Assembly: GCA_040954595.2 (NCBI GenBank)
Contig: CM082579.2
Coordinates: 8,607,625 to 8,671,624, forward strand
DNA: 64,000 nucleotides
Reading direction: 5' to 3'
DNA from: Balanoglossus misakiensis
Taxonomy: Eukaryota > Animalia > Hemichordata
This document shows positions 74-59,941 of the stretch, one piece after another. The notes below the pieces were generated by a model. That model was not told the DNA's origin. It saw only the letters and a program-made list of their open reading frames with translations, and ran no database searches. How positions within the stretch are numbered: position 1 is the first letter of the stretch; each line of letters starts with the position of its first letter. Position numbers and translations under genes: made by a program.

Positions 74-2421
74 TGCTGATCCTCATAGGCATGCCTACAA
101 TCAAACTGAGGGACGTAGGTTGCAGTCTGGTAGGTGCAGATACTCTGCAGACTGACATATGAGCCCCAAACTCCGGCTACGATGATAAGCAGCAAGGAAC
201 ACAAGAATGACCGGTGGTTTTCAGCTCCGATGCAGCTGTCAATCCTACGGAAACAGAGAAAAACACCACCTCTGGTTAAAGGCACGTAAGCTGCAACTGG
301 ATAAAAAATTAAAGTTTTAAATAATCTCATATATGCTTTTAATTATGTCTATTAAATGCTATTTCATGATAATATATCAAGCTCAACACTTATTTATGAC
401 AAAATGGCCAAAAATTAAAGAAAAACGAAAATTCCTACAATTTTAAAAAAAGTGCAATATTGCAATGAAAAATGAAAATCTGATGTATCAGTGGTGTACA
501 TTTACTTCCATGAGCTCAAGTGGATGAGATCATGTTTTGTTTATGAAGTTTCATAACCGGAAATGCAACATTTTCATTGTTTCTTGCATTTTCCCACGGT
601 GGCGGCCATAATCGCTTGCGGCAAAGCTTTATTATTTATCTGGTTAAAACTTGCATATGCACTCATATTTAGGGTTTATTATGCTTGTGTATAGTTCACT
701 GCCTTCATCTGCATGGACTAATGGTAGTGCAGTTTGAAACAAAAATTATGAAAATTATCCCAGAAGTTACAGCTTACGTGCCTTTAACTACAGTGGCACC
801 TAAGTCATTCTCTGATCTTGGAATACAGCTACACAGCTACTATTAATAAACAAAGTTTGGTTTTCTTAAAGTCTTTGACATAACTTGCTGGGGGGAATAG
901 TCCAATTCTGAAAACAACTTGAATTCTTACCACACACAATGATGATCCAGTGTTCGGACACAGTGCCTGCACACCTTGCAGTGTCCAGCTCTGGGTGGCC
1001 TGGTTATCCGACACACCTCGCACCAATTGTCTCCGTTCACATTATCAATGTTAACTGTAAATGAGTGACTCTGTTCACACAGCACTGTTTTATCGCCGGG
1101 TTTGCCGACCGAGGAGCCACAAGCTCTGGACACTGACGAGGTTCCTTCTCTGCGACTTGGTAGAAGCTCGTCGTACTGACCGCCGGAACCACTTCCGGGT
1201 GTCTGGCCGGACTTCCTGATGATCCCTGGATCCCGCTTGGAAAGGAAAAATGCCACGAACATGAGAAGTACTGTTGCCGCGATCCCGGCTAGCTCATACT
1301 CCGTCACATGGCCAAGCGGGACAACGCATCCAAAGAATATGACACCCAGGTAGACCACTGACACGAGCCCCCAGCTGTAGAAAAACCTGGTTCTGATTCT
1401 GAGTCTGGAGACCTGGCGAAAGTACAGCAGAGCGGCAAGAGGCAGGGTCACCAGCACCAGCACCGTCAGATAATAGTGCAAGGACGCTACGTACAGAGCC
1501 AGCGGGATGACAAAGACCGGAGGGAGGGCCGTAACGTCCGTCACTTCGTCAATTCTCCGGGCACCGCCGAGACACCACGGAATGCGCAGTCTGTCGCATG
1601 CCACTTCCCACACTCGGGTGAAATTCTCCACAGGGACTGGCTGGCACTTGATGAACCTGGTACAGGGATGGGGAGAAACACCTCTGTGAAATACATGTGC
1701 ATTGTACTCTGATCTGATCTGACCTTTAGTAGTTTGATGAATAACAATCAAGCTAATCGGTGTTGAAAGAAGGTGCATGAATATACATGTATTTGACAGC
1801 TGTACATACATGCTCATTATGATTATCATTACCGGTACATTTGCAATTACATGTTTTAATGCCGTCAAATTAAACTGCGTTTTCTAAAGCTGTGCCACAA
1901 AAGGGATTGTCTGTGGTGCCTTTGTACCTACAGAAAATTCAAAAGGACAGGTAGATTAATTTGACAAATTACGTAGTGAACTGGTATATTCCCTGGAATA
2001 CATTCAGAAATCATGATCAAGCGACCAGCGCTACAGCTGTACCGCCCTAAGTCGTACGCCACGGTTTTGGGACACTGTAGCTATGATGTGAAGTTGGAGA
2101 GGGGGGTCTGTCGAAAAAGCGTTGAACGTTTGGACAGTCAAGAAAATAAGCAACTGTAGTTCGGATATGGTTTCCTCGATCGCCAACAGTCGAGTGCACG
2201 CGCAAGTTGTCAACAGAATATTACTTCCGCAATGACAGCGGTAACACTCGATAGTTTCCACAAGATTAAATTCATAAATACCTGTCACATGTATCATCAA
2301 CAGCTTCACAGTCACAAAGGACGGCAAGAACGTGACTTTTTTCACCCTTGACATTCTTGTATTCGCAACAACACAGGGGTTCGCCAATATCGTCTGCACG
2401 AAGTTGACGTTCGACGACCAT
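74..2421 (-). CDS. ZDHHC23: DHHC palmitoyltransferase ZDHHC23-like (3' end beyond left edge)
   Basis: Exons complement(2282..2421, 931..1656, 74..244), GT-AG, phase-consistent. N-terminus MVVERQLRADDIGEPLCCCEYKNVKGEKSHVLAVLCDCEAVDDTCDR plus DRLRIPW matches the ZDHHC23-type N-terminus. DHHC-CRD: CEVCRITRPPRAGHCKVCRHCVRTLDHHCVW|IDSCIGAENHRSF. Confidence 0.93.
280..783. mobile_element. Non-autonomous DNA transposon, Kolobok-like (TTAA target site, AGG...CCT ends)
   Basis: TTAA at 276-279 and 784-787; terminal inverted repeats AGGCACGTAAGCTGCAACT / AGTTACAGCTTACGTGCCT; inside ZDHHC23 intron 2; related copies at 2498-2654 and 61736-62014. Confidence 0.8.
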
Positions 2422-2497
2422 CTTGAAAATGACGCCCTAAGTTGGTCAAAATTGTATGGCTTCAGACCCCCTATCTATATATCTATCTATCTATCAG

Positions 2498-2654
2498 CAT
2501 GGTCTCATCCACTAGAACTCATGGAAGTAAATGTACTCCGCGGCTGAGACACTACATTTTCATTTTCACTGCAATGTTGCACTTTCTGTTTTCCTTAATT
2601 TTTGGCCAATTTGTCATAAAACTATTTTTTTATCCAGTTGCCACTTATGTGCCT
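2498..2654. mobile_element. Partial inverted copy (left half) of the Kolobok-like element at 280-783
   Basis: Reverse complement aligns by eye to about 280-533 (CTCATGGAAGTAAATGTAC; TTTTTTATCCAGTTGCCACTTATGTGCCT). Confidence 0.75.
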
Positions 2655-2745
2655 TTATTGCACATGCTTGGGCTGACATCGCCCTAAATGTACACGAAAC
2701 AGACAGAAATGTGTGGAAAATTATCGAATCAAAGGTGATAAAAGT

Positions 2746-3376
2746 GGGATTTTCCATCACGTATGGTATTATGATCATCATTGGGATATTCATGATGTCG
2801 ACGACCTTATGACATCAGAATGGGGAAACCCCGAGATAGTTCGTAATGGCCGACATTACACTAGAAAACGCAGTGCGTATGAAAGACTATCTCCAGTCTT
2901 TTGCAGATTTAACGCACAAAACGGGTAAGTAGATTCTATAGTTTACATCCAGAATGTTCACAATGTTGCTGTGAGCAGATGGCGAGGAACAGAGTTCGAA
3001 ATTATGGTACGATAATGGTAGAATAGAGAAACAAATAGCGATGACGTATGTATAGACGTATATAGAGTTTGACGACGGAATTGACAATCTGAGTAGTTAA
3101 AAGGCGTTGTAAACATGGAAACCTTTATTTTACTTAAATGATATGCATCACGGTCTGTATTAGTAGTAATGTGAAGCCTTAATTTGAAAGCACATATACA
3201 AACGCTAAAATCTCTGTGTTTCACTTCGTGGTTTAAATACCCTAATGTTTGTAAACATAATGGCGTGATGACTCGCCGACGCAAACCGACCTTTCAGTGA
3301 ACCACCTACATCGTCTCAGAGACAGCCGTGATTTGCGCATGTGCGCGTCCTTGTCGATGATGTTATGGGAAACTCC
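2746..3376 (+). promoter_or_regulatory. Putative NF-kB sites upstream of the SPRY-NHR-ARM-RHIM gene
   Basis: GGGRNNYYCC matches: GGGATTTTCC 2746-2755, GGGAAACCCC 2823-2832, GGGAAACTCC 3367-3376. Strong donor GGG|GTAAGT near 2925 suggests a non-coding first exon. Confidence 0.5.
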
Positions 3377-3739
3377 CGAACTTTTGTACAGAAATGGGTT
3401 TCACTGCATGTTGTTTGACAAAAAAGCTATGGAAGTATTTGCTAATGATATAGGTCTAATCACAATTGCTTTAGGTGCTGAATGAAAGAACGAACAAACG
3501 AATGAATGAATGAATGCAAACATTTTATTTATTTATTTTTTATTTATCATTCACGGAAGTATTTGCTAATTATGATATAAGCTTAATCACGATCGCTTGG
3601 GGAGTGCTGAATAGATGAATGAATTAATGAATAAATGAAACATGAATATCTATCTATCTATTCAGTAAACATACGTACAGAGAACTTGAGCAGTAGTGAA
3701 GATACGAGGTGATGGGATCATTGCACCAGTGCCACCAAA

Positions 3740-6700
3740 ATGGAGCTCAGTCAAACTTATGCCGTGTTAGCTATAGGTAGCAGTGTAGATGATCAACGTC
3801 AGAATATGGCAATGTCCACGGACGACCCGATTTTCGCCCCGCCCGATTCACAGTGTCACGCTTGGGACTTCTCATCACCCACTGACTTTATCAATCCTTC
3901 CGACGATGGCGTGACAGCGGCGTTTCGGGCACGGCCCCTCCGGACCGGACTCATACGAGGCAAGGAATCGTACAGCAGCGGGACGCACGTGTTTGAGATC
4001 CACTGGCCGGAGGAGGGACGGGGTGAACACGCCTCTGTCGGAGTGACGACGGCGCTGCAGCAGCGCTCCTCCGAAGGGCAAACTGATCTCCTGGGGAGTT
4101 CGTCAGAGTCGTGGGGGCTGAACTTACATTGCGGCACTCTTCACCACGACGGCAGAATGGTGGGACAGTACGACGGGGGCAACCTGTTCCCGCACACCTT
4201 CTTTATTCACCTTGACGCTGACGCTGGTACAGTCAGGTGAGATTCACCATGCTTCTCCGTCGGTCGCCCCCCCCCCCTCCACTGTGATTAAAATAAAATG
4301 ATTTCAGCCCGGACTTCAATTCTAATAACAACATTCACAGTGTTTTCTATAAATCTGCTAACATATGCAAGCTGAAAAGTTTGTGACAGGTCCTGAAGAT
4401 TATTCGGCTGGAAATGCAATCCATTGATTGAAGGACCCTAGTTTTCTGGACTCTTTACAGCCGATTTAAATTAGAATGGGTTCATTCCGTGTCGTGTAAA
4501 TTCGGTCTAAATAATTGTATCTTCTCTATCTCATCCAGTTTCATGGCGAACGGGAGGAACCTCGGAGTGGCCTTCAGCGACCTGCCACACACTACTGTTC
4601 GACCGCTCTTCGTTGCCGCGAGCACCACGAACCAATACGAGTGTGCTATACGGATGAGGTATCTTGGCGACGGAGGTCAGTGGTCTCTGATCAGATGTTG
4701 GTTTAAAAAAATCAGGAGTCGCAATTTCCACTATCGTGTTATTGAGAATGTCCTGTTTTGTCGCTTAATTTAAGTAGGTACTTTCTGGGTTTTCAAACAA
4801 TATCCACAGATGCCGTCGTACCGGTGGAAATTATCAACCAGTCACCACTGTTGTACAGATCGCCGTGCACACCCGACTATACTTTCCATCCTCGGTGCGG
4901 GCGGAACATCGAAATTGTTGATGCCGGAACGACGGCCGAGAAGGTCAACGAAGAGTATGTTGCTCGCCACAGTACTAAAATCTAGTCAGATTATTCATTT
5001 CCGAAAATATTGCCATCACACGTTGGCAGTCATAATAACTGCAAAATAAAAACGGGATTTAAAATAGATTGTGTTGCTATTGACGACAAAACTCGGCGGC
5101 GGTTTTATAAGATATTTGATTTATTCGGTCAGGTTATAACCGTTTATCTATAACGTCTTCTTGTCCCAATTAGTAATCGAGTTCCATTTTTCGCTCAGAA
5201 TGTTCAACAATGCGGTAGCTTTAACGAGCCAACCGCTTGAGGTGGACCACCCGTTCGAGGTCAGGTCGGTTTCGAAGACGAGACGAGGCTGGAAAGGCAG
5301 CATCAGGATTGGATTCACGACGCTCTCTCCGCAGACAATGTGCTTCCCGTCGGACATCAAAGAGTGTTCCGAGGGACTGACCTATGTCTGGTGTGGCAGG
5401 CAGCTCTTCAAGAACGGTAACTTGGTGAGCGGAGCGCTGGACTTCGATTTGACGTCGTGCCAGGTACAACTTTTCAAGTCTTTTTTCCGTAGATAGAAAA
5501 TTCTTCTTCGTTTGCAGTTTGGGCGCGGATTACCAGGGAAAACCCAAATCAGAAAAAAAATGAACGGCGGCTTTCTTGGAATATTTACATATTTTATTAT
5601 GATATTACCCACTGACTGTTTCAGGTTGGTGACACGGTCGGCATATTGCTGACAGAGGACGGCTCTGTGCTTTTCTCCCACAACGGGCGATATCTTGACA
5701 CGTGCCTTGTGGCTTTCAAGCGTCCGTCACAGGTGTATGGGGTGGTGGATTTTTCTGGGCCAGTAAAAAGCGTTTCAATCACAGGTATGTCATTTCAATT
5801 TCTGGGCGATACAATAAACGAATAGAAACGATTGTATTTGTAAAAAAACTAGATGTTCGGAGAAATCAACAGGTCCTCCGCCATGTCAAGCTTATGCGCA
5901 AGCGCAGCGTCTTCGCCAGCCAATCTCTGTTGCCGGTTGGGGAATTCTCTTTATACTACATTTTGTACTAATTAACTTGTATGGGAGACAGTCCACACTA
6001 GATGTAGATGTGCAAATACCGTTAAAGGGGTGCCGTGATATCGCAGTGGCAAATATGAATATTCATTGACATACTGTCTACGGTATATTTGTATGCACAG
6101 CCTACCTATAAATATTACTACGAAAAAACATTTGTGGCTTTTTTGACCAATAGAAATACATTTCTGTTCCAGACGATGCCTTGGTTACGCCTGTCGTTTG
6201 CCGTTACACTGGCTCGTCAACCACTACCGCCAGCGGTAACGCGATTGAGGACTGCATGGAAGCTGCGGTGGACAGACTGATGAGAAGAAAAGCCAGCACT
6301 GGCTCCCTGGAGGAGCAATTCCGCGACATCGAATACTTAATGCGCCCCTTGGCAGGCCAGACCCCGCCAGAAGTTCAGCGGCGCTTTGGGGCCCTGCTGG
6401 TGGGTCGCGGAGTGGCAGGGGCGCTGGCAGACCTGCTTCGCGTCCTGCACAAGGGAGACGCCAAGTCCAAAGTGACGCTGCGGGGGCTTGATCTGGTGAG
6501 CCGATTCTGTTGCGAGTACACCAGCGTCAGTCCGGAAATGTGCAGAAGCATCGTGGAAAGCCCGCTGCTGGGCTTGCTGAAGCAGGAATTTCACGGATAC
6601 TGGTCACGGGGGGAGCTTCTGACGAAAGTACTCAGAAACATAAAGATGTATGACTGTACACCTGGTAAGAAATTACTGGTTGTAGATTGTGGCACGGATG

Positions 6701-7173
6701 TGCTAAAATTGATTGCATTATTTGAAGGGATATAGGAATGAAGGCAATCGTAAAAAGAATGTTTCCGGGGGGAGGGGGTTGTCTCGAGAAACCGGTCGTC
6801 CAGTGTAGCATTTGATTGACTGACCGACTGAATGAATGAATCAATGAATGAACGAACGAACGAACGAACGAATGAATGAATGAATGGCCGATTTCAGATT
6901 ATGTCAAAACTACGGGAATGACAAAAACAATTGTCTAAGTATCTCATTTTTGAGTCTCGCGTTCGTGTTATGTTTTATACAGGTTCTCATACAAGATCCG
7001 AGAATAGACCAGAAGCTGATTCGACGAACGGAAACCGCCGAACATTCCCCGAGGCAGAGACGAGCTCGCCACAGGTGGTATTTAACCACCACCATCACAG
7101 CACCCACTACAATATCAACGGCTGTTCAATCGTACAGATTGGTAACAACAACGTTACTGTCCAGGCTTCGTGA
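3740..7173 (+). CDS. Multidomain protein: SPSB-type SPRY + neuralized homology repeat (NHR) + truncated ARM-like helical region + C-terminal RHIM (about 628 aa)
   Basis: join(3740..4236,4539..4675,4810..4954,5199..5463,5625..5784,6173..6664,6983..7173)=1887 nt, all GT-AG, open frame. SPRY: IRGKESYSSGTHVFEIHWP..RGEHASVGV..LLGSSSESWG..LGVAF..MRYLG. NHR: FHPRCGRNIEI..FNNAVALTSQPL..WKGSIRIGFTT..VGDTVG..VYGVVDFSGPVKSVSI. Tail: YNINGCSIVQIGNNNVTV. Confidence 0.85.
6826..6885. repeat. (GAAT)n/(GAAC)n microsatellite
   Basis: gaatgaatgaatcaatgaatgaacgaacgaacgaacgaacgaatgaatgaatgaat in the last intron; a similar tract at about 3480-3515. Confidence 0.85.
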
Positions 7174-8484
7174 TATACGTGTATGGACGTTTTCCAGCGA
7201 TACATACGATCAGTAGGCTCGACTTTGCGGACACCTTTCGTGAGACCTTCAGTGTTGAAATATTGAACGGTAGATTATTTGACGTCAAGATTTATCACAA
7301 CTTTATTATCTTTCCGTGAGAGAGTATTTTGATCCTTTCGTGAAGGACTTATCTCTCTGCCCAGTCCCAAACGAATTAATCTTCTTGTATAGTATGTGTC
7401 AAATGTTATGAAAACGTATTCCTTTAACGTCTTTTGATCATGGCTGTGTCTTATGCCCCGCCAGCCATGCATTCTTTGCTATACGATTGTACTGTTTACT
7501 GAAATTAATCACTTGTGTTGTCATGCTGACCTGGGCATGTTTGGTTTACCACCCACCAGTTATATAGGGATGTAGTAGTACAGGGTACCAACCAGAAGTT
7601 GTGTTAGAAAGTGGGTCATATGACGTAGCCCAGAGACGCGATTTATGGTATAAATTTAGAAATATCTCATTCAGTTTCAAACGCAACAATCCTAGCAGCT
7701 GATATTAGCTTAATGGTAATATTGCTTTTAATAGTCAGGACGCACATAAAGGCGACGTTCTTTGTCAGTTTTATCTAAAAGCATATTCATTAACTGGATA
7801 ACGTGTTCAATCATGGAAAACAATGGTTTTTCACCAAATTAACATTTAATGTCAACGAGAATGAAAGTTGGAACCAGGGATTGAAAATTGCGAGGCCATC
7901 TCGTTTGGTCAGTAAGTGGATAGCTGAAATAATTATATCACACTTAATTAATGAGCAGAGTAATTATAATATAATATATGACTTTTTATCACATTATTTA
8001 TGTATTACATGTATGTATTTTTTAAGACAAGACATTTTGTGTATGTTTAATTGATGACGTCTACGTCAAACGAGACGCACCAAGACATGTGTGAGTGATG
8101 TTTATTGAGTAGGAATTCTCAAAGAGACAGATACAGACAGACTACAGTGAAGGACGAAATCGTGAATAAACACGGATTTGATATTTCTCAAGATTTTTAC
8201 AACCTTTCAGGGTTTTTTGCAAGTGACTTTAAGTGTGAAAGTTTATATGTGCATATTCCTTTTATTTTGTATGTTGCTTCTTTATAAGTCGCAAATAAAA
8301 CCTGTGGAAGACAAGATAACGTTGTTCCATTGCATTGTCTTGTTATTGTGATACCATGTATACTAACTTTTATTTGTGCAACGTCATCACATCTCGTCGT
8401 TGCAACACACGGTGTTTTTGGTGTGTTTAAGTCGTTCTTCCTCTGTTTATAACAATGTGTGGTAGGGACATACCCCTATTCTCA

Positions 8485-8504
8485 TGACGTCAGAGGGGAT
8501 TCCC
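8485..8504 (+). promoter_or_regulatory. Adjacent CRE/ATF and NF-kB sites
   Basis: TGACGTCA (8485-8492), then 2 bp, then GGGGATTCCC (8495-8504); just downstream of the previous gene's AATAAA (about 8295). Confidence 0.45.
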
Positions 8505-9110
8505 TGTTTATGTTAATCGTCGGGTCTGCGGGTCCTCTGTAATAAAACCGGGTCTTGTATGTTATACGTATGACACATATAGTTTTTGAATGGAATGGTT
8601 CTGTTTGACGAGGAGTAGTGTTATTTAGACGAACATGCACAAAAAGACTGGAAAGGCCTTATTTGACTCTATGGCTGCATCGTGTTCCACCCCTGGTTTC
8701 CAAATGGTACATCTCATTGAATCCATTTCCTATGACGTTAAGGGTTTTCCCCCCGAGAATGGCAAGGACCACATGGCAGTAGCGAAAGTAAAAATACAAC
8801 ATTTCCATTCTGATAAACACTGGAGGTAAACCTGCCACACACAGGCGTTCGGCTTTAAAAGGTAAGATGTTATAATACTGGGCAAGTAGGCCCGCATATT
8901 ATATTTTGGCCATCTGGGCAAACGTGAGACTCTCTTCGCTATACATTGACGATAGCCGTCCAGTTTGTCAGCTACAAAGACTTTAAGGCGGGAAGGTTGA
9001 GGGACTTGTGCGCATTGTGTGTGCTGCTACAGGCAACGAAATTCTGCATTGCCACCTGAAGTCGCTAACATTTGGCAGTATTTCCGTTGTCTCTGTTTCA
9101 CAGTTGTACC

Positions 9111-9195
9111 CAATCTGATTAAAATCAGATATAGAGTTGGGTCGCTCTTTAATATTTGGATAGAGCCAACTCTACATCTGATCGTAATCAGACTG
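9111..9195. mobile_element. Foldback MITE, family with CAATCTGATTAAAATCAGAT termini (shortest copy)
   Basis: Hairpin CAATCTGATTAAAATCAGATATAGAGTTGG...CCAACTCTACATCTGATCGTAATCAGACTG; degenerate flanking duplication AGTTGTACC/AGTTGTTAC. Confidence 0.7.
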
Positions 9196-9451
9196 AGTTG
9201 TTACTCTATACCGACAGGTTCCCCGGATGTCAACACAGCTCAACTCACATCCTGCATATTTTGTTTTCAGCTTCTCTGGATTCCATTATCTGTAGTTGTA
9301 TTGACCAATATAAACCGTTCTCTGCCATCCAGGTTTCGTATGATCGCACGCCTCTAACACTCAACCACTGTACAGTTTAATAGTACATGTATTTCATTTT
9401 CGACATTTTCCTGCAAAAAAAAAACACAGCAGGGTCAAAAGTCAGCGAAAT

Positions 9452-9489
9452 GGAAAATACCCACTCTTTGCATAAAGGGGAAAGTCCCC
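9452..9489 (-). promoter_or_regulatory. Canonical NF-kB site upstream of the DED gene
   Basis: GGAAAGTCCC at 9479-9488 is GGGACTTTCC on the minus strand; a near-site GGAAAATACCC at 9452-9462; about 270 bp before the ATG at 9757. Confidence 0.55.
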
Positions 9490-9756
9490 TTGTGTGAATA
9501 GAGTGTTGCCTCATGGCATGAATGCAAGGGAATTTTTGAAGGGAATAACTGACTTCATCATTGGTTCAACGAAAATTGCCAAACAGTTCACAGTCAAAGA
9601 GATCTACAACAAAGACGGGAACAGTGTATATATAGGCCTATGTACGTCAAGAATATTAATGTTTGTTATTTAAAGATATTTCTCCTGGCCACCTCACTTT
9701 GAATAATCTTTATCGTTTTCAGATCATTTAGCTGCAGTTTGTGACACTGACGAAAA

Positions 9757-10892
9757 ATGAGCTTCAACCCGCTGGGCAAACTGTACAAACACCTGGACGA
9801 GAACTTGAAGCGGGCGGACGTCAACGCCATGAAGACGCTGCTGCGGAACAATCACCTGCCGAAGCGCGACGCCGAAAATCTGCAGACGGCTGCGCAGATA
9901 TTCGAATACTTGGAAGACAGGGGCGTCATCGGGGAAGACGACCTGAGTTTCTTGAAGACGCTGCTCAGGGAGATCGACCGGGAACCGTTGATAAGAGCCG
10001 TTGAACGCTATGAGAGGGAGGCGGGTTTAGATCCGGGTAAGTGTCGTTCTCATCTCGGTGTGCAGACGTCACCAGAACATTGGCAAAGTATGCAAACGAT
10101 TGGTTCGGGAGACAGCGACGGGAAATGGTGGAGAATCCCGTTGTAACAAAGATTTGCCATAAATAACAGTTAGAGCCTCTGGCAGATGAAACATTGAACG
10201 ACTGATAAGTAACCGGGGTATAGCTGATAATTGTGTCAGGCGTATGTGCAGTATTTAGAGGGAATCCTACATGATGTATTTGCAGCCAGCGACATAAAAT
10301 GCCTTGATGACTCGAACACGCTGTTATGGCATTAGAGGGCGCACAGCTTAAACTCATAGCATATGCATGACCCTTTCCCATCATCACACAGTCCTCCGTT
10401 TGTGTTTTCCCCATAGTCAGTGGTGCTGCAAATGTCTATCAAGAAACTCACGATTCGATGAAACCGAAATTCATATCATCCCCACCTGCTGTCACAAACA
10501 TCGACGATTTACTTGCAGAAATCTTGAACTCTGTCAGAGGTTCTAAGGGCCAGGTAGGTTATCTTGACCAGAACACATTAAAATGAATTTATAATGTACA
10601 GGGGAACTACTATACAGTATACATACATACATACATACATACATATTCTGATTTGCTTCCTAATACAATTTGTAATATGTATATACAGATTTGTATTAAA
10701 GGGCGTGATATCTCATACAAAGCTAGAGGAAGGATACATGGATGGGACGATCCCTGGGTGTACGACGCATGGGCGATGGATCTGGCGACTAAACACGAAG
10801 AGAAAGCCAGTCACTACCGGGATGAAAGCGACGCCGTCAGGGCAGCCATACGGAGACTGGTGGACCATCTGAAATCGAAGGGTTTTCTGTGA
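9757..10892 (+). CDS. Death effector domain (DED) protein with a C-terminal domain of unknown function (about 206 aa)
   Basis: join(9757..10036,10417..10553,10689..10892)=621 nt, phase-consistent. DED pattern LYKHLDENLKRADVNAMKTLL..LPKRDAENLQTAAQIFEYLEDRGVIGEDDLSFLKTLLREIDREPLIRAVERYE. No death domain or caspase domain follows. AATAAA near 11554. Confidence 0.85.
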
Positions 10893-11770
10893 CATCTTCG
10901 ACTTCGTTCGGGTGCCCACAGCTCACTGTGCCGTTGATGTGGTGTCGGTGGCCGGGGTGACCAGGACGATGTTCGTTCCGATCGATGAAATCATTAGCTT
11001 CAAATATGAAAGCAATGGTGTATTTGCATGCTCTATTTATGGGTCACGTAAAACGGGTCTTTATTTATCAGTTATAGTTCTCTATTTCATAGTAAACTTT
11101 AGGTGAGGTTATTTGGCAAGCTTAGTAAACATGTAATTATGATTTTCACAACGGTGATGATGTGGCTATCCTCGGAAGATTCAAGGACCCCTTATTATCA
11201 TTTTTAAATTTAAGCAAATATACTCGATTTTCCTTAACAAAAGACGGGCAAATTTTAAGACATGTCATTTAGAAGAGTTCTTTTTTAAACATTGACAGTT
11301 TACAAATTACATGCATCGCCAGGACCCATGAAATCACAACGCATTTTGATCGGAACAAACTCGTTCAGCGCCCTCCGTCGACGCAATATCAAGCGGCCCA
11401 GCTCAGCTCGAGTAGTCTTGGTGCGCGTGCGTGTGAATACATGTACAATGTATACCAAAATAACATCAACTTTGGTGCTTCCTTCACCATTTTATGTCAT
11501 AGGTCATTGCCTGAATCATAATCTGTCATCTATAAACTTTTTGTTAGAACTTTAATAAACTTGATGTGAGATGTTAAAGCCTCAAACATTTTAACTGTTG
11601 TGTTGCTTTCGATATTTTTGATATTTGTGTCAACTGCAGTTTCTTATTCGACTGCCTAAAGCGTGACGACATGCCAACGACACGTGTTGGCGGACAATGA
11701 CATGTGGTCATTTCATTCACAGTAGAAGTGACCCCAAATAAGCCCATTGCGTATTCTCGGGTAAGCGTAA

Positions 11771-12235
11771 GGGGATTTCCCTTCACCATGGCAACACACA
11801 TGTCATCGCATATCGTGCTACCAAACACAGTAAGAAGGTTGATTTTGCCAGAGGAATACTTTCCCCCAGAGGTGTTATTATCCCAGCTGTTCAGGAATCG
11901 ACACGGTGTGAAAAAGCAGGGAAATCCGCGTAACGGTCACGGCTCAAAGCTGAGTGCGGTTCTGCGGTTTAAAATCGTAAGTATACGCCTTTCAGTTCAG
12001 ATGGGCGTTGCCGAGAGCAAGTGCCTAGCTTCTTTACATGAATTTGCAGGATATTGAAATATTAGACTGGGCTTTTGAAGTCGTCTCGATGCTCTTGTTG
12101 AATGCAACCGGTGATCGAGTCGTTATGCAATAAGTTCATTTTCTGAATAAATCCTTCATCGGTACTAGTCTCGGTTACCCAGAGCCCTCTGCTTCTTCCG
12201 TTGGGCACTCCAGAAAGAGGGTCTGGGGAAACCCC
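11771..12235 (+). promoter_or_regulatory. Putative NF-kB sites at the promoter/first intron of ARM gene A
   Basis: GGGGATTTCCC 11771-11781, GGGAAATCC 11919-11927, GGGGAAACCCC 12225-12235; donor C|GTAAGT near 11977 and acceptor TTACAG at 12644 suggest a non-coding first exon. Confidence 0.5.
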
Positions 12236-12653
12236 ATAGAAAACTCTCCGGGCAAAGATGGCCGACTTGAGACAAATGCGATGCATGATGGTTGCAGCCT
12301 CAAACATAAAAAAAACATGCTGAGAAGTGCTAGACCTGCTAAAACTGTCTACAAATTGAAAAGAGAGAGAGAAGTTTGGTAAATAGTTTTCTAATATCGT
12401 CATATCATAATATCAAATGTTAAAAATGCGCAGAATTCTGGTGAGAGAAAATTGCTCAGTCACATGACTGTTTAAATAAACATGTCATAGCAGCTAATAT
12501 CAGAGGTGAACTTTGATAAATACGTCAACGAGTCCCGTAAAATCTGTAGACTCTCTGATTTACGGCATGCCATATGCAGTGTGACATCCCACCTCGAAGT
12601 GAACAAGTTCACTCTGGTAAAAAAAATTGCCGCGCAATTTACAGTATTCCGCC

Positions 12654-14824
12654 ATGTCTGATGTTCCTGACGCCCGCATATTAAGTAAGAATGATAGTAG
12701 CCAAGTCAAAATCTCTGATGGAAAACTCAAATGTCTGCCTTGCAGAATAACCACACGCCTCGCAGATACCAGCATGGCTGCTGCTCGCTCGAAAAAGCTG
12801 ACCTCGCCTGGATATCGAAAGAACGTTACCAGCATAGACTTAAGATGTGAGGAACTGTACGATGAGTTCTTTGCAGAAAACGCGTCTTCGCCTATGGTAA
12901 AGGCACTCCAGGCTTTAAGGCCGGGCCCTCATTTCGATATCAATATGGCAACCAGGCTTGTTTCCGAAAACTTGTACAAGTACGTGAACAACGCACCCAT
13001 CTACGAGAGACGAGTGGCGCTGGCCGACAAGTTGACAGCGCTGGACGGTGGTACTGTGCTTGCCAGTGTTCTTGTTGAGCTGATGACGAAACGCAAACCT
13101 ACAGAATACGAGCTGTTAGCTATAGGTATAATATGCTGCACCTGTAGCCTGTTCGCATCGCTCAGTTCGGAGTTGTGCGCGCAGCTTGGGCGGACAAAAC
13201 TGCTTGGCATTCTGTTGGAAGACACAGATGCGTATAGGCTGGGAGAAAATCGAAGTAAGGTGAGATTTGCATTGGTTTAATAGTGGAATATGCGGTTGCA
13301 TTATATCATGATGTTAAAGGCGTTATAAGGTGATATTTCGGTAACATGGTGTTAAAATTGGATGACAGGTTTGGGGAGAAACCGAGACATATTTTAAACA
13401 GCTAACGCAACATGACGATTTGTCCTTCTTGCAGGATCGCTGCGTTTCGGCTCTCTACATACTACTGAGCTGTTCTCGGGTCCCTGGGAATCAAGGTATG
13501 CTTGGCGAACTTCACGCGGCCGAAAGACTGCAGTGGTTTGTTGAAAACAGGGATCTGGAGATGGCCATGGTGTCGCTGTTCACCGTGGCTCACGTTTACG
13601 GAGACACGGGACCGGCGGCCCGAGATAAAGTCATTGACTACATTATCGACTCCTTGGAGTGTGCCGCGCTGGCTGGCCGGTACGCACGCTCCAAAGAGTG
13701 CAAACTGACCGTGCCAGAGATCCTCGCAGGACTGCGCATGGTGGCGCGCAACGAGAAGTCCAGTTCGCTGTTGGTTGACAAGAACATTGTTCGTGTTCTG
13801 TTGGACATTTTGAACGACGGCGATCAGGAAGAACAGGTTTGTGTTATACAGCTCCTTGGAGATTTCGCAGCACTGGAACGGAACAGGAAGAAGATTTTAG
13901 ATACTGCGGGTCCAATTCTCAGTAGGGTTTCCCAAAATGGCACTGAAGACTTACGTTCCATGATTTACGATCTTGTGCTTTATAGACTGCTGGCCAGTCC
14001 TGAGAATATCCATGGTAAGGGTATATTAATAATCCGAACGCTAATGTGGCATTTTCAAAACATGATAAACCCGAATAGAAATAACATTAAATTATAACTA
14101 AAAAATCATATCATCTACGATGATAGGACTATTTTAAGACAAAAATAATTCGGTGTTTTAGGATCTTCTCATTTAAACTCATCACAAGTGTAAATAACCT
14201 CGTTGGTTCTTCTTTGAACGGTTTGATTTTTTTAACAACGCAATACATGTAAACGCCACAATACAGTTAGCTATTAACAGTCGTCGGCAGACTGAAAGAT
14301 TCAGTCGTGTGCGGGCGCTCTGGCGCACTTCGAGCTTAGTATCGTAACCACCGTGGCATTTCTGTTTCTGCATCAGGCCGACCTGACAGCAAACGTCAGG
14401 GGAGAATTACACTGGACGAGACGAGAAGACACAAGTCGGCAAGCACACCAGAACAGAATACAGAGGCAGACTTGACAAGAAGCATGATAGGTCATCAGCG
14501 TGTGCAGGGAGGGCAGGTTGCCAACGGTCATTACAATACTATAACCATAAACAACTACTTTCCGTGTAACGACTGTCATTCACCAGGTTGGTTTTTCCAT
14601 ATAATATATTGAAGCGATCTTGAAGTCTGCATATTTATAAATAAAGAAATTGATCCACACGATGTCTACAAAGATGTCTTTATCTGTCTGTCTGTCTGTC
14701 TGCCTGTCTGTCTCTCTATCTCTCTCTCCCTCCCTCTCCATCTGATTCTCTTCTTTGTAACTTGTTTCCAGATATTCCGTGGAAATCAGCGACGATGCCA
14801 CCGCCATACAACGATATCCAATGA
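12654..14824 (+). CDS. Armadillo/HEAT-like repeat protein A (about 482 aa), no TIR domain seen
   Basis: join(12654..13259,13435..14014,14377..14586,14772..14824). Helical repeats: RVALADKLTALDGGTVL..FASLSSELCAQLGRTKLL..SALYILLSCS..EILAGLRMVARNEKSSSLLVDKNIVRVLLDIL. First two exons are solid; the last two exons and the start codon (alternative ATG 12774) are less certain. Confidence 0.75.
14683..14740. repeat. (GTCT)n/(CT)n microsatellite
   Basis: tctgtctgtctgtctgtctgcctgtctgtctctctatctctctctccctccctctcc, intronic. Confidence 0.85.
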
Positions 14825-17596
14825 AACCAGTCACTGAGAACTACAGTATTTCGCCCATGGAAGTCGCCGTCGCGTCTTCAACCAATCAAGGGGACTCCGT
14901 CATAACTCAAAATTCTATGGTGGTCGACATAATACCGTCGACTAGAGAACGTTGGTAGAGTTACAATGAGTCGTTGATTAATATGAAGTTGAACGCAATT
15001 CAACATAAATTAGTTTGATATTTGGGACATTTTGTGTGTATTCAGAATTCAGTATTTTACAAACTCTCCAAATAGCCAGAGTGAAAAAAACATGGTTTAA
15101 CAATAGATATGCTGTAGTTGCGATAGTTTTTCTTGTCTAAAATATATTTGGTGGGACTCAATAACTCTGTGAAACTTATCGATAGTACCTAAGAATTAAT
15201 GGATATTTCACATGAATAACTTCAATGCACATTGCTGGTCAATTGTTGTATTGATGTATATATTATACGCATAAGTCCCGAATATATCATTTCTAACCAA
15301 TATGGTTTAATAGTGTTGTTGGCTATTTAAGCCTCAGATATGAAATAAAATTAATGACACACTAGCTCAGCTGTCTTGAAGCAAGTTATCGTCATGTCCT
15401 ATCCGTTCTCCTAACTTGTGTCTCTCTAATTACTTGCCTTTCATTTTTCACAGCACTGTCCGAAACAGTATGTATACCAGAAAAGTCGCGCAGATAAAAC
15501 CTTGGGGAAAATGTCAGACAACAGCAAACTTAGGGCGCTTGGAAGTTTGGGGCGCTATCAATAATCGAGAAAACTGATGAAAACGGTCATTTTGGACACA
15601 CAGGAAATAATTATAATCCCTTCTTCTCCTTTCCTTCGTGGCGGGCCTTTCGCGGTGTGTGACTGTGCACAAATCAAGCTGGGGTCTATCCTGAAAACAC
15701 TGGCATTCGCCAGGCCGACAAATGCGGGGCGATTGTGTTTTATTGCGAGTTTGTCACAGAACTTCCCAGTTTGAAAGTAATGGAACTTGCTCATGCCGGG
15801 TGAACCGTACGGCAGAAGGAATTTAAGTAAGCTCTGCATACATGTATTCCAATAAATAATGTGGCCAAATCAATCTCCACCACTTTCACGACCGTTCATG
15901 TAGTCGTGATTCTTGCCCGCCATGTTAACCGCGCAAAACCGTGATTAAAATGGTATTTTAAATTATAATACATGACTACATACATACATGTATGTGTGGG
16001 GTTGTTTTCCAAATGGATCTTGGTTCCGGGACACTTACTTTCTACAGGTACTTAGAACACGTGACACCGCGTTGAAAACCACTCCAGTGCGAGTGTCTCT
16101 TCTGTTGCCCGCAGTTGTTTGAGGGAAGTGTGATGCCGGTCCACGACCTCGCGGAGCGCTGGGTGTTTCTGACCAAGTTCTTCCTGACCACCTCGGTTCA
16201 CTCGGACTGGAGTCCCTCTGATTAGGTCAGTATCTTTGTTTTTATTCCGCTATCTGCATCGGTGATGGTGCTTGCACGAAGGCGAAATGGGCGCCTTGGT
16301 CATTCGGCGACTACATGTACCTCGAGCCGTCCTGATATCAAACCTTGATTTCTATTTCCTGTTTTCTTGTCTCGCACGAGGAAATGAACTTTTTTGGAGA
16401 CGCGGAAATACACCCAATGGTAGACATATTACATTCCACCCAGCAAGAAAGGGAGCCTTACGCACTTAAAACGCACAGACAATACTAGTATACGATTTAG
16501 CCTGTGACTGCAATCGATGGAAACAGAGAACGCCTTTGCTCTTTTCCGAGTCAACGAACAGACATCTTGTCCTTCTGTTTTATGGGAAGGTCCATCGCCG
16601 CAACGGGAAGTCTAGAAAGACAGACTCCAACAGGTGGTCAAAATCCTCGCGTTCCACTTTACGTACGTACTGCGAAATAGGCGTCGGTCGGTAAACGTGG
16701 GAGATAACCGGGGTCAAAACACTTCATTGTCGTGGTGAAAGTGGCTGCTCGCTTCTCCAGGGACTGGAATGTGTCTACCACAGACTTCGTTTGTGTGCCC
16801 GTTTCGCACAATACGACACACGTCCAGGGTATCATAGGGTTAGGGCCAGCCCGGTGCGTCAATCAGGGTCCACAGACAAGCGTGGCATTCGAGTCCGTGC
16901 CCGTTTGGTCGAATGGGAATCGTCGACCTGAACTTGATAGACTAGTACATCGTTGCCATTTGTTTATACCTGTCTACATGTAAACGCCTCGTAACAAATC
17001 TCAGCCCACGCACTTGAAATGTGCCGGACAAAGGTATCACGTAATTGGGCTCCTTTTGTTCGCCATTCTTTTTTTAGACCCAAGGTCTCAACGCGTGGCA
17101 CTATCACCAGATGATGTCACTTAGGATACACAATCGCGAGAGGAAGTCACGTGAACAAAAATCCCTGATATAACAGTGATAGTTTTATGTTATGCTCTAT
17201 AAGCGTGCATCCCTCATCTCTTCCGCTTTTGTTTAATAGGGTATGGACAGTTTAATACACAGCAAACTCGGCAAGATCAGTGATCAGCTGAAATTTTAAT
17301 CTATTAATGTCTGACGTTGTTTTGATTGTTGGACTGACATAGAAGACAAAATCCCCACACGCGCACGCTATGAAATTAAATTTTCTGCCCACCGAAAACC
17401 TTCTCAACTTTAATGTGTGCGTAAGTGTATGTGCGCACGCGTGACAAAGATGTATAATACAGAGCTATTTCGGGGAAGTTTTTCCAGTCACTTGACTGGT
17501 TGGTGGGTAACCCGGATACACTTTGCACGTGTCGCTTCACCGAAGCCTCATCTGAGATTGTTATCGCACTGTAGGCAGGGCCAGGAGGGGAACACC

Positions 17597-20500
17597 ATGA
17601 GCGCGGACACCGAGGACGGTCCGTCTCTGCAACGGCGCTCCAAGGTCATGATGCCGAGAAGCCGGAGTGTCATCACCAGCGCCGACATGGAAGACCTTCA
17701 ACTCGACGCTGACGGCGACGCTGCTACCGCGGCGATAAATGGCGGTGAAGACGGAGACGGTGATCAGAGACAGACCGAGGCTTCGCCAGCTGCCACCAGC
17801 AGTACCAGCCCGCAACTTTCACCCGCAGCGAGAGACCACCGGGATAGGTTCCCGAGTTTTGACTACACGGGCGATGACGGTAAGCAGTGAGCCAAAATTG
17901 CTGGAATGGAATGCCTTTGAGAGATGGTGCTTTCGCGTTGTTTGTAATGTATGGGGGTGGTCATGTTTACTTGTGTAGGTTGTAAACGCATGGCTGTGAG
18001 TGACTGTATACCTTGCGCCACTAAAGGTACGCTCCGCTTCGTCCATTGTCGTCTGTAAAACCACGGGTCTTATCTGTCAAAAAACAACGTGCACTTCTCA
18101 ATACTGCATGAAGCAGCCACTCTTCTCGACCCTGTCACTGCAGCACCAGGCTATTTTGCACCATACTGTGCGAAATGGCGAGGTGCTTGCTCATCGCCAT
18201 TTTGTCCAGCCCCCCGTTTAATTGTGTGCATCGGTGGAATGTCAATGAACAAACGGACCGCCATTACTGATGTAACGCACGTAGAAACGGCGCGTAAAGA
18301 TAGCCAGCAATGGCCTAAGCATGTAAACATGAAGTGTACAAAGGCGTTACAGATCGCCCGACTTCCCACTTCTCAACTTCTGAACGCCAAAGCTCACACT
18401 TCAAAGGTCGGCTACAGTTTATTATAAGTCGCCAAATCTACCTGCCAACATAATTAGAGTATATGTCGAGCATTTCTCATCTCTAGTAAACGTTGTAACC
18501 AGATGTGAACTGATTAGGCCTACGTATATTTTAAAAATTAATTCCACGGAATCTGCATAAAGGTTCATCTTTTGTGCTGTGACATTTCCCAGTACATGTA
18601 TGTTGAAGTGGGTAAATTATAGTACATTGAAGTAGGCAAATAAACAGTTACTAGAAAATTCACGGTAGTCCCCAATGTTCAACCGCACATTTGTGTGAAT
18701 ATCTCTGCCCGTGCTGGTTTTGGATGCATTAGACGAGTGTCAAAACTTAACATGCAAATCATAGCGTTGTGACGTCAACATTTGCAGAAGAAATACGACT
18801 TGTTAATGCAGTGCTTTCTTGCCGGTTGTAAATGTATGTCAGCATGTAAATTCAAGGATAAAGTATAAAGACTAGTCCGAACTTTCAATTTTGAATAATA
18901 ACAGTTCTAATTGTAATCATAGGGGGCTTTGCCCATATCTAAACATACTCGGCATTTTAGAGTCGAACACGGAAATACTCTTGATTCACAGAATTACGCA
19001 CTGAAAATATTCAAATACTGAAGCCAGTGGGTTTTTACATGTAGCTGTGTACCGTAAGCGTTTCGTGGTAACTTTGATAAACTGTGATATTTATGATACA
19101 CTGAGCGCCTCTTTTTGAACTTTGTACGGACAGGTCCGAGCAGAAAACCAACAGATAATCGTGACATTTCGCAGCGAAGAGAGCAGGCGGGTACAAAACA
19201 TTCACGCGGCGTTAAGATGACCCCAACGGTTGATTTCGGGCAGCGAGACGCCATCGGGAAGATGGCGCAGGCCGTGGAGAGCATGAAGCGGAGCGAGGCG
19301 AACGACATCTGGGACATGACGCGGGAGGTCGCCACTCACATCTACATGCCCTTCCACGCCACGCACAGCGAGCAGACCCGCCACCAGCTGGGCGACTACC
19401 TGGCGACCTCGGGCGGGGGCCGCGAGCTCACCTGGTTCCTGGCCAGCCTGCTGGAGATCGAGGACAAGACGGAGAGGATCTGGCAGTCCATACACTTCGT
19501 GCAGAACACCTGCTGGGACTACTCCGACGTCAGCCTGACGCTGTGCAAGGAGTTCGGCAAAGGCGGACTGTTGAATCTCATGTTCACGAACCTTGAACGC
19601 TTTGGATTGCAAAAGTACACTACCATGGTAAGTACGTGTATTAACCGTGCGTCTCAATGTAGGAAGTTACAAAATCCGACACAGGTGAAAGTAAGGGACT
19701 ACTTAGAGGTAGTTCCTGGTTATCACACTCCATAGCTTATATGTGTAATTTTGAGAAAATTGTGTTATAATATTATACTTTTCTGGAAGTTTTCTCTAAC
19801 GCTGTGTTATAACGCAAACACCACACATGCCATGTCGACAAAATGTTTGCTTGGTTTTTATCGTTGTTGTTTACTTCCCGATTGGGATTTGGTTTTATTC
19901 TGGTGTCGGTTGTCTGTGTCGTGACCGAGTGGTTGGTTTGTTTTGGCAGGTTTATTGATTACCCGAGCGTCGTGAGCTGCAACTTACATCAACTCCATAT
20001 CTTGTCATTTTTGGTTTGGTTTGATTTTCATTTGGCAGCTGTCAGCCATTATTTCGATTGCTGAGTGGAAGTTTATGACGACTTGCTTATCCAGTGCTTC
20101 AATATGCTTGTCTTTCAGGGATTATTAGACAAGTATTGTTAAACTTATTTCAGGAAATGATATTTATGTACAGTCATGTTTTTTTTTCATCACGCGTGTA
20201 TATTTTCCCCTGACAGAATGAACGTCTCTTGGTCATATCGTCGCTTAATATTTTACACAACTGCTCGAAAACGTTTAAGAACTTGAAAGAGTTCAAAGGC
20301 CAGAATGCCGTGAGGAAACTGCAACCGTACACGAGTGCGCGGGACAAAGAATTAGCCATGCTCGGACTCTTCATTCTGTCGTACGTGGCGGACGACACCG
20401 AACTCGATGTTCTGAGTTCGAGTAACGAGATGACGGACTACATCCTGGCGATCTTGAACAATGCTTTGGACAGCCCTACCTTGAAAGGGAGGTCGTCGGA

Positions 20501-21645
20501 GGGGAACTTTTCCGCTGTGGAAATCCTCAAAAGTTTGTCCAATCTCGCCAGAAATGACCGAAACAAGTCGAGTATGGTGAGCCGGGAGGTCGCGCACATA
20601 CTGTTGCAGTTTTTCCAAAGGGGGCGCTCGCCCGAGAAGAAGTTCGCCGCCAATCTCCTGACGGTGCTGCTGAAGTTGCCGAGCAACCGGACGAAAATCA
20701 TCGAGACCAAGGGACTGGTCAACATGGTGAATGGTCTCTGTAAGAGCCACGACGCGTCCGTCAAAGAGGCTGCCGAGAATGTAATGATGGCTATTATGAG
20801 ACCCGCCTCTGTGACTGATATACCAGGTGCGTTAGGCGGTATGGTCGCCGTTTGGTACTCAAGGTCGACGATCGTCTCATGCGCACGTGTTTAATTTCGT
20901 GTGAACAAACACTAGACCCAATCCAAATGTTCTGCAAATTTTGCGTTCGACGCAATCAAATAGCGGACTGTCTTCGTTTCCTTTCATATTTCCTGCGCAC
21001 TGTATAAGTAAACTTTACTTTTGTCCCTTTTCTTCGCCCAATTTGCTGTCTTTTATCGGTCACCGACACAGACTATGGTCGCCGCCATCTTGTCTGTTGT
21101 CAGGACAGCACATTGCCTTATGGCATTGACTATACATTTTTTGTAACCAGGGACTCTGGTTTACACGTGCGCATAAGACGATCATCGCCCTTTAATGTAA
21201 TGAATCACAATCCTTCCATGATGGTGGCGTATTTCTTCACGTTGGTATTTCTGTAGATACAATCACATGACTATATGCCTGTACACGAAACTGTTTACAT
21301 GTATTAAGAAGCAAACGTGAAGAAACAGATGGTCAGTTGTGCATAACATATCGGTAAAAAAAATACCATTCTTTCGTGTGATGTACAGGTAAACGGGAGA
21401 AGGCTGACCTTGCCAGGCAGAGGTCAAAGCAAGCGCATCGCAGTTTGGTGTACACCAGCGGCCGCCCCGACGACGACGACGACGACACATTTGAGCTGCC
21501 ACTGCCGAAGCCGCGCTCACAGACACTCGGAAGAGCCGTCACACTGAACGGCACTAACAGCGCCAACCAAAATCCCCGGCACTCTGTCGACATTTCCGAG
21601 GCCACCGATGTGGTGTTCGAGAACGAAGAAGACTCGGTCTGTTAG
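17597..21645 (+). CDS. Armadillo/HEAT-like repeat protein B (about 547 aa), paralog of A, no TIR domain seen
   Basis: join(17597..17879,19134..19627,20217..20826,21389..21645)=1644 nt, GT-AG, open frame, GC3-rich exons. Motifs RHQLGDYLATSGGG..CWDYSDVSLTLCKEFGKGGLL..SSLNILHNCSK..FSAVEILKSLSNLARNDRNK; low-complexity N- and C-termini. Confidence 0.85.
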
Positions 21646-39400: not shown

Positions 39401-39773
39401 TGCATGCGAACACTAAAAAAGACAATCTATACGGGCACGGAAGACTCTTACCGTGGATGTCGTGATCGAATTTCGTGCCGCTCACTTTTCCGTCGTCCAA
39501 AATCTGCAAGTGGTACCCGGTGAGACAGTACAGTTGCCGGTAGTAGAGCGGTTTGCTGTACATGCTGGCTGGCGAGTTGGCTCCGCGACACGTGCATTCT
39601 CCTCCCTGTCCAGCCTGGGCATCTCCTCCGCCGGTCGCTGCAGACTCGCGCCGGGGGTTGGGCGCCGGGACAGCTCGGCCGTCGACGACCACACCGGCTC
39701 CGGTGAAGAAGCCGCCGAGACCGAGCACGAAAAGTGCGAGGACTCCCGTCTTGTAACTAGCGGTGCGCGTCAT
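30487..39773 (-). CDS. FGF9/16/20: Fibroblast growth factor, FGF9/16/20 subfamily (about 233 aa)
   Basis: complement(join 39452..39773, 31112..31215, 30487..30762). Three-exon FGF layout with a 104-nt middle exon. [18 protein letters not shown]; [20 protein letters not shown]; EECHFRE..NWY.TYSS; C-terminal [14 protein letters not shown] typical of FGF9/16/20. Confidence 0.93.
31945..32330. mobile_element. Probable small TIR element in FGF intron 1
   Basis: 14-bp inverted ends GTGACCAGGTGTGG / CCACACCTGGTCAC (extra left copy at about 31901); internal direct repeat CTGGTCTGGAAACCGCGCCCAGAAG twice. No clear TSD. Confidence 0.45.
36436..36576. mobile_element. Foldback MITE, same family as 25876-25996
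   Basis: Ends CAATGATTAAAATCAAATGTAGGG / CCCTACATCTGATTTTAATCAGATTG; flanks AATCTTGAC (36427-36435) and AATCTCGAC (36577-36585); shares the internal segment TAGTGTGAGGCGACAGCATAAA with the 25876 copy, in reverse. Confidence 0.78.
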
Positions 39774-59397: not shown

Positions 59398-59941
59398 ACA
59401 TTGTACAAGTATTTAGAACTCACTGTGGGAGAACTGAATGCAATGTTTGTCTTTATTGCAAGATACATTGTAACAGCGAGACAGGTTTTAAAGTTTTGGC
59501 TTCTGTACAGACTTGTTGCCAAATTTGATAATTCAGTCTCAGTACCCTTGTTTTCCTGAGAGAAAAACACAATGATCACCATAATGCATTATTTCTGTCT
59601 TGCAGGCCTACCACATCACCAACGACGAGCCGATTTATTTCTGGACGTTTCTGACCAGGCTGATAACTGGTCTGGGATACCCTGCACCCTGGCTCAATCT
59701 GCCCTACTGGCTCATGTACTACATGGCCTTACTGGTGCAACTCCTCTGCTTCGTACTCAAACCCATCGTGACAATCAAGCCCAGTTTCACTCCGATGAGG
59801 ATGGCGCTGGCTGGAACCCACCACTATTACAGCTGTCAGCGGGCCAAGGAGGACCTCGGCTACAGACCTCTAGTCAACATGGATAAGGCCATAGAAATCA
59901 CGCTGGACAGTTTTCAACACCTGAGAAAAAAGACTATGTGA
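57223..59941 (+). CDS. NSDHL: Sterol-4-alpha-carboxylate 3-dehydrogenase (NSDHL; about 345 aa)
   Basis: join(57223..57243,57691..57849,58029..58102,58253..58325,58526..58654,58821..58963,59208..59310,59606..59941)=1038 nt. Rossmann [11 protein letters not shown]; LTSSASVV; catalytic YTETK; [11 protein letters not shown]; [20 protein letters not shown]; C-terminal KKTM dilysine-type ER signal. Confidence 0.95.
59365..59397. repeat. (GAT)n microsatellite
   Basis: About 10 GAT units in NSDHL intron 7. Confidence 0.9.

Follow-up and report, generated by a model that had tools for sequence, protein, structure and literature searches.

A gene at positions 3740-7173 on the forward strand of a 64,000-nucleotide stretch of Balanoglossus misakiensis DNA (the window) is predicted to encode a protein of 628 aa, in which an SPRY domain, a Neuralized (NHR) domain, and a truncated ARM-like helical domain are followed by a disordered linker and a C-terminal RHIM-like motif; to judge from the sequences, this RHIM-like tail is real and conserved between two acorn-worm species, the second being Ptychodera flava. 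The tail is best called RHIM-like; there are good odds that it is a true, divergent RHIM, and on the profile scores it is no formal member of the Pfam family. The architecture appears to be new, the occurrence of invertebrate RHIMs on diverse adaptors is already known, and an amyloid role of the tail is putative.

Gene model and the homolog in Ptychodera flava

The seven exons, all with GT-AG borders, combine into a single open frame, which ends STHYNINGCSIVQIGNNNVTVQAS-stop. An in-frame stop at 3710 lies upstream of the start codon at 3740 (alternatives at 3806 and 3812). An SPSB/GUSTAVUS-type SPRY domain begins in exon 1 (3740..4236) and ends in exon 2 (4539..4675; Pfam SPRY positions 82-110), and exon 3 (4810..4954) encodes a linker and the likely start of the NHR; of six donors tried for exon 3, the frame stays open with 4954 only. 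The core of the NHR is found in exon 4 (5199..5463) and its end in exon 5 (5625..5784), both matching Pfam PF07177; exon 6 (6173..6664) contains the ARM-like domain at about 6247-6664, with the segment 6628-6664 coding. Intron 6 (6665..6982; GC content 0.40) is in phase 1 and harbors a TGAA microsatellite at 6829-6886, identified by TRF. The first part of exon 7 (6983..7104; GC content of the exon, 0.50) encodes a charged linker of 40 aa, predicted to be disordered, and the second part (7105..7173) the RHIM-like motif with its core, VQIG, at 7132-7143, exactly as read in the initial annotation; the stop codon TGA is at 7171-7173. Three AATAAA hexamers on the forward strand (8165, 8294, and 8541), 1.0-1.4 kb past the stop codon, are candidate polyadenylation signals.

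The phase-1 splice from 6664 to 6983, already postulated in the initial annotation, holds up as a predicted junction, inferred by homology and from a donor matrix. The donor (CTG/GTAAGA at 6664/6665) and a pyrimidine-rich acceptor (ttttatacag/G, opening at 6983) are both present and the frame is open across them; with a score of 9.67 in a home-made matrix built from 13 donors within the window, the donor is the best of the 46 GT sites in 6173-6982. The homology comes from P. flava: among 1.84 billion representatives, a HMMER search with exon 6 retrieved a single protein (P0001; 590 aa, E 6.5e-15), which is the uncharacterized XP_070553195.1 of this organism. Over the whole gene model, 273 of 588 aligned residues are identical (46%), with 58% identity in exon 1, 67% in exon 2, 39% in exon 3, 55% in exon 5, and 38% in exon 6, and the P. 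flava protein has its domains, tail included, in the same order, with a helical domain that ends early at the same point. Compared to the tail of that protein, the model using the 6664 donor scores 67, a value reached in 0/5000 shuffles; the peptide of the 12 codons kept by this donor alone (6628-6663) is identical in 7/12 columns (0/5000 shuffles), and the best local match of the RHIM frame of exon 7 is the RHIM itself, with 8/15 residues identical (12/5000 shuffles). The linker differs in length, being 23 aa in P. flava.

Since a single homolog was found, the conservation rests on two sequences. A word-based search with exon 6 gave nothing among 7483 candidates; it missed the P. flava protein too, which indicates that such a search is insensitive at this distance. 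With the P. flava protein as the query, 7994 candidates yielded nothing beyond the query and two weak fragments of SPRY, and an Atlas feature search with it yielded SPRY clusters alone, all below 0.9; its single-sequence AlphaFold model has a pLDDT of 33.6. None of 189 stretches from a metagenome scan was confirmed, and one stretch (L001) of the 22 in a second scan was rejected as a chance match of 8 residues beside a transposase-like ORF. In the database searches, no amphioxus or echinoderm protein was among the homologs of the RHIM gene or of the ARM gene at 17597-21645 (see below).

The RHIM-like tail

The only family matched by exon 7 (62 aa) is Pfam PF12721, RHIM, with 18.0 bits (E 0.0021); for the last 31 aa the score is 19.7 bits (E 0.00059). 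Both scores are under the gathering cut-off of 20 bits, and in P. flava neither the whole protein nor its 49-aa tail gave a Pfam RHIM match; the profile score, named in the initial annotation as a check, thus speaks for the RHIM as the sole family found and falls short of formal membership. The RHIM core has been defined as (V/I)-Q-(V/I/L/C)-G (PMC9444067), and this definition fits both species, with VQIG here and VQVG in P. flava; the conservation in orthologs for which the initial annotation had called is therefore seen as VQ[IV]G in the one homolog. Common to both tails are the core V-Q-x-G, Ile at -6, and the Asn after the Gly. The P. flava tail has Asn at -7, Ile at -6, two Asn after the Gly, and the canonical apolar residues at +5/+7; it departs from the canon with Tyr at -1 and Cys at +3.

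How far such a motif could arise by chance depends on how much of it is considered. The core tetrad alone occurs 4 times in the six frames of the window vs. 4.6 expected from 30 Markov-3 controls, which is not significant; the core with Asn at +3 occurs once vs. 0.2 expected from such controls. A stricter flank pattern, composed after the motif was seen, is found once in the window and in 0 of 30 controls, and the real tail does not match a pattern requiring the canonical Asn-x-apolar flank. Among 200,000 shuffles of the exon 7 peptide, 0.25% contain the core and 0.04% the core with Asn.

The initial annotation had further held that the flanks match those of RIPK1 and RIPK3. In comparison with RIPK3 in PDB 7dac this is so for Asn at -7, Ile at -6, Cys at -3, Ser at -2, the core, and Asn at +2/+3; it is not so at -1, where Ile takes the place of the Gly of RIPK1 and RIPK3, nor for the apolar residues, which are at +4/+6 instead of +5/+7 and are thus out of register by one. 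The reference motif quoted for RIPK3 was confirmed from PDB 7dac and the one for RIPK1 for GIQIGA only, from a paper. A search of PDB with the 31-aa tail gave 5 matches (E 0.58-2.9), with the RIPK3 fibril chain 7dac in fourth place (E 2.3); the matches of unrelated beta-strand proteins equal or surpass that of RIPK3, which is not among the matches of a 22-aa tail. This 22-aa tail contains 0 charged residues and 0 Pro. The linker, claimed to be disordered, is predicted to be so from its composition (GRAVY -1.62, FoldIndex -0.29), as is the linker of P. flava (FoldIndex -0.30). RHIMs have been described as uncharged and located in disordered surroundings (PMC4262963).

The mammalian proteins RIPK3, RIPK1, ZBP1, and TRIF share with the tail the core tetrad, Asn-Ile at -7/-6, Cys-Ser at -3/-2, and Asn-Asn after the Gly, and in RIPK3, too, a C-terminal RHIM follows a disordered linker. 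The acorn-worm protein differs from the mammalian ones in that no kinase, death, Z-alpha, or TIR domain was matched by Pfam in the exons scanned or in the whole P. flava protein, and in its Ile at -1, the apolar C-terminal residues one position off, and the score just below the Pfam cut-off.

Domains preceding the tail and neighboring genes

Exon 1 scores 22.3 bits with Pfam SPRY; scores for single exons are under the cut-off, and the whole P. flava protein reaches 52.3 bits. All matches of exon 1 in PDB (11/11) are SPSB or GUSTAVUS-type chains (SPSB2, E 3e-19), and the P. flava protein matches SPSB-type SPRY chains with E 1e-25. The NHR is above the Pfam PF07177 cut-off of 23.3 bits in both exon 4 (44.7 bits) and exon 5 (27.3 bits), with PDB 2e63 (KIAA1787) as the closest solved structure (E 1.6e-6). 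The protein thus has the SPRY subtype of SPSB1/2/4 and Drosophila GUSTAVUS (SPRY plus SOCS box), and one NHR as in Neuralized/NEURL; it differs from the former in that no SOCS box was matched (Pfam, 6/7 exons and the whole P. flava protein) and from the latter in that the single NHR stands behind an SPRY domain and neither RING (exons scanned and the whole P. flava protein) nor SOCS box was matched. In SPSB1, the residues Arg77, Tyr129, Trp217, and Gly218 are critical for binding of (D/E)(I/L)NNN, according to PMC2923778. Of these four pocket residues, 0/4 are kept in the P. flava protein when aligned by eye to SPSB4, and none, also by eye, in the window gene; the targets of the SPRY domain are therefore probably not the (D/E)(I/L)NNN motif.

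Homology links exon 6 to the first ARM exon in each of the two downstream paralogs (scores 67 and 64, 0/500 shuffles each). Exon 6 continues past their phase-0 intron position and enters helix 1 of their second exon; the ARM-like domain amounts to ~139 aa here vs. 332 aa in the neighboring paralog. Pfam ARM gave no match in exon 6 and weak matches in the second exon of the ARM paralog (ARM_ARMC5, E 8e-5). The model of exon 6 has six predicted helices (pLDDT 60); Foldseek found no match for it at E <= 0.001, and the matches given by VIA-align are to helical repeats of a generic kind (the best with Z 8.5, rmsd 3.6, and 124 aligned); no armadillo entry is prominent among them, which does not count against the fold. 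To call this truncated domain "ARM", on the basis of the pairwise tests and the paralog, is fair but indirect; hence the order SPRY-NHR-ARM of the initial annotation stands as to the SPRY, the NHR, and the sequence of the domains including the RHIM, the ARM being truncated and devoid of a Pfam ARM match of its own.

The first of the paralogs (12654-14831, forward strand) is a 482-aa model with a phase-1 tail exon at 14377-14586. This tail exon contains a degenerate RHIM-like stretch, a GQVA tetrad followed by residues rich in Asn, Thr, and Ile, and gave no Pfam RHIM match. The second (17597-21645, forward strand) encodes an ARM-only protein with disordered ends and is the likely ortholog of a P. 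flava protein (P0004, XP_070553159.1), its one database homolog, which shares 69% over the second ARM exon and aligns along four exons of the gene. The accession numbers of the two P. flava proteins are 36 apart, suggesting a conserved neighborhood in that organism; the locus of the RHIM gene and the ARM paralog is probably syntenic with P. flava. Among predicted structures, an invertebrate ARM+TIR_2 cluster comes nearest to P0004 (TM 0.58), with other ARM clusters next, and TIR gave no match in the scanned parts of the three ARM genes of the window. In all three, a phase-1 intron (6664, 14014, and 20826) directly follows the helical domain and is itself followed by a low-complexity tail exon, an arrangement which would permit swapping of tails. 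As this local family resembles invertebrate ARM-TIR adaptors, the usual place of a TIR may be taken here by the RHIM. The adaptors in question, from oyster and Aplysia (PMC4346834 and PMC9334734), are akin to the present gene insofar as P0004 is nearest to ARM+TIR_2 and exon 6 belongs to that paralog family, a link which runs via predicted structures and one intermediate paralog; they differ insofar as the ARM, cut here to ~139 aa, precedes a RHIM-like tail, with the end of the frame 62 aa past exon 6.

The next gene after the RHIM gene, 2.6 kb downstream, is a DED-only gene (9757-10892, forward strand; exons 9757-10036, 10417-10553, and 10689-10892). Its predicted product of 206 aa has an N-terminal DED (Pfam, 72 bits) and a short C-terminal segment without family match. 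On the other side, a DHHC palmitoyltransferase gene (927-2436, reverse strand; Pfam DHHC, 40.2 bits) is oriented head-to-head with the RHIM gene, so that a common promoter region is possible. Two long ORFs on the forward strand (24843-25640 and 27135-27863) consist of repeated beta-strand-like units without a significant Pfam match; they are possibly propeller or tachylectin-like. Further along are exons of an FGF gene (30487-39851, reverse strand) and of a COMM-domain gene (43095-43445, reverse strand), and a weak match to the 3-beta-HSD family (59585-59941, forward strand). Rfam gave 0 matches within 2400-12700.

Proposed role of the protein

With a probability of about one half, the protein may be a cytosolic innate-immune adaptor, in which SPRY and NHR bind targets and the RHIM-like tails stack into an amyloid-type signaling assembly. 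Judged by their families, SPRY and NHR, both of them beta-sandwich modules, would have peptides as targets; since neither a SOCS box nor a RING was matched, the protein is pictured as a receptor or scaffold and not as a ligase. Binding of targets would cluster the tails, the short ARM-like stack serving as a spacer or an oligomer surface, and the clustered tails, by analogy to RIPK1/RIPK3, Imd/PGRP, and HET-s, would nucleate cross-beta stacking among themselves or together with a further RHIM protein. Least certain is the last step, in which the output might be NF-kB-type or death-fold signaling and not RIPK3-MLKL necroptosis. For this reading speak the architecture of the P. flava protein, which is the same down to the tail, the uncharged, proline-free motif behind a disordered linker, the ARM+TIR_2 cluster as nearest neighbor of P0004, and the DED-only gene close by; against it speak the sub-cut-off Pfam RHIM score, the lack of a RHIM match in P. 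flava, Ile or Tyr at -1, the PDB matches of the tail, which are no better for RIPK3 than for others, and the model of exon 6, which shows a generic helical stack only.

It is also conceivable, if unlikely, that a genuine, amyloid-competent RHIM acts here as an inhibitor, joining or capping another RHIM assembly while SPRY and NHR bring clearance factors. Drosophila Pirk and herpesviral RHIM decoys damp RHIM assemblies in this manner (PMC4262963 and PMC13506858, the latter treating cRHIMs, Pirk, and viral decoys). In ubiquitin ligases (SPSB, Neuralized), SPRY and NHR serve to bind the substrate, the flanks of the tail are out of the RIPK1/3 register, and Pfam found no catalytic or death-fold effector domain in the exons scanned or in the P. 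flava protein, all of which would suit an inhibitor. However, neither SOCS box nor RING was matched, and the absence of an effector domain holds equally for sensors such as the PGRPs and ZBP1.

Somewhat less credible still is the idea that the tail, short and conserved, serves as a beta-strand motif which docks on a folded domain, be it the protein's own SPRY or NHR or that of a partner, and only looks like a RHIM. Such a look-alike would account for the Pfam score under threshold, for the absence of a Pfam RHIM match in P. flava, and for the unrelated beta-strand proteins that match the tail equally well, but the residues kept between the species include those that define a RHIM (V-Q-x-G, Ile at -6, Asn after the Gly). 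Binding of the tail's own NNN by the SPSB-type SPRY domain was considered and ruled unlikely, given that none of the four critical pocket residues is kept.

A bolder scenario, which we regard as doubtful, extends the adaptor to the whole gene cluster: SPSB-type SPRY/NHR substrate receptors would have been rewired from degradation to amyloid nucleation, and an adaptor derived from ARM-TIR proteins, with the RHIM replacing the TIR, would seed a RIPK3-independent signalosome, the paralog tail at 14377-14586 and the DED gene being its local partners. In fungal amyloid signaling, receptor-effector pairs are likewise clustered.

That the RHIM frame is not produced at all is very unlikely. Two alternative frames are also open, one from a phase-0 donor at 6627 (630 aa), named in the initial annotation as what would speak against the tail, and one from read-through of intron 6 to a stop at 6735 (588 aa); a phase-0 intron does lie close by in the ARM paralogs, and the read-through form keeps the conserved segment 6628-6664, from which its entire score vs. 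the P. flava tail derives (38, 1/5000 shuffles). Still, P. flava retains the very segment 6628-6664 that the 6627 donor would remove, this donor is poor (score 0.47, rank 14, vs. 9.67 for 6664), and the match of its frame to the P. flava tail is at chance (score 22, 1229/5000 shuffles; exon 7 alone in this frame, 4754/5000). Only the RHIM frame explains the match up to the end of the P. flava protein, and its GC3 is the highest (0.56 vs. 0.47 and 0.45 in the other two frames).

Scarcely probable, finally, is a role as upstream trigger of vertebrate-style RIPK3-MLKL necroptosis like that of ZBP1 or TRIF: MLKL genes are reported as multiplied in acorn worm (PMC11932488) and duplicated in hemichordates (PMC11507063, PMC11932488), but RIPK3 is reported in craniates only (PMC11932488), which makes a native necroptosis role unlikely; in sea cucumber, it is caspase cleavage and not phosphorylation that activates MLKL (PMC11932488), and RHIM-bearing RIPK1 homologs were not found in echinoderms, in passages which do not name hemichordates (PMC12119088).

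For the cytosolic adaptor, the closest known parallel to its setting may be amphioxus (Branchiostoma floridae), an invertebrate deuterostome in which RHIMs are located in unstructured regions on heterogeneous immune-type architectures and occupy positions usually held by other interaction domains (Kajava et al. 2014, PMC4262963). The text of that paper names NACHT, death, repeat, and membrane domains, not SPRY or NHR; as the comparison is by text alone and Figure 1 of the paper shows "all other domains" in grey, an overlap with SPRY/NHR is possible. The one database homolog of the present gene, in turn, is from a hemichordate and not from amphioxus. In the C-terminus of zebra mussel RIPK1, the RHIM is required for NF-kB activation (PMC12119088). 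No description of a RHIM fused to SPRY, NHR, or ARM was found in the literature, where subscription journals and preprint supplements were thinly covered, nor one of hemichordate RHIM proteins, including in passages of PMC11507063 and PMC7075850; the passages considered from PMC7075850, PMC8662601, and PMC11325021 contain nothing on this gene. The novelty claimed for the architecture in the initial annotation is therefore to be restricted: this combination was not found described, whereas RHIMs on many unrelated architectures have already been reported for amphioxus (PMC4262963).

The gene adds a new architecture to a RHIM class already known as heterogeneous and overturns no concept. Its RHIM-like tail is kept between two deuterostome proteins of 46% identity, on what may be an adaptor without kinase or death domain, and this conservation would imply a further RHIM partner in the hemichordate lineage. 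To our knowledge, most of what is understood about how RHIMs work comes from four mammalian proteins, from the Imd pathway of arthropods, and from a handful of viral decoys; the acorn-worm tail may thus provide a concrete peptide and gene with which to ask what RHIM amyloids did before necroptosis.
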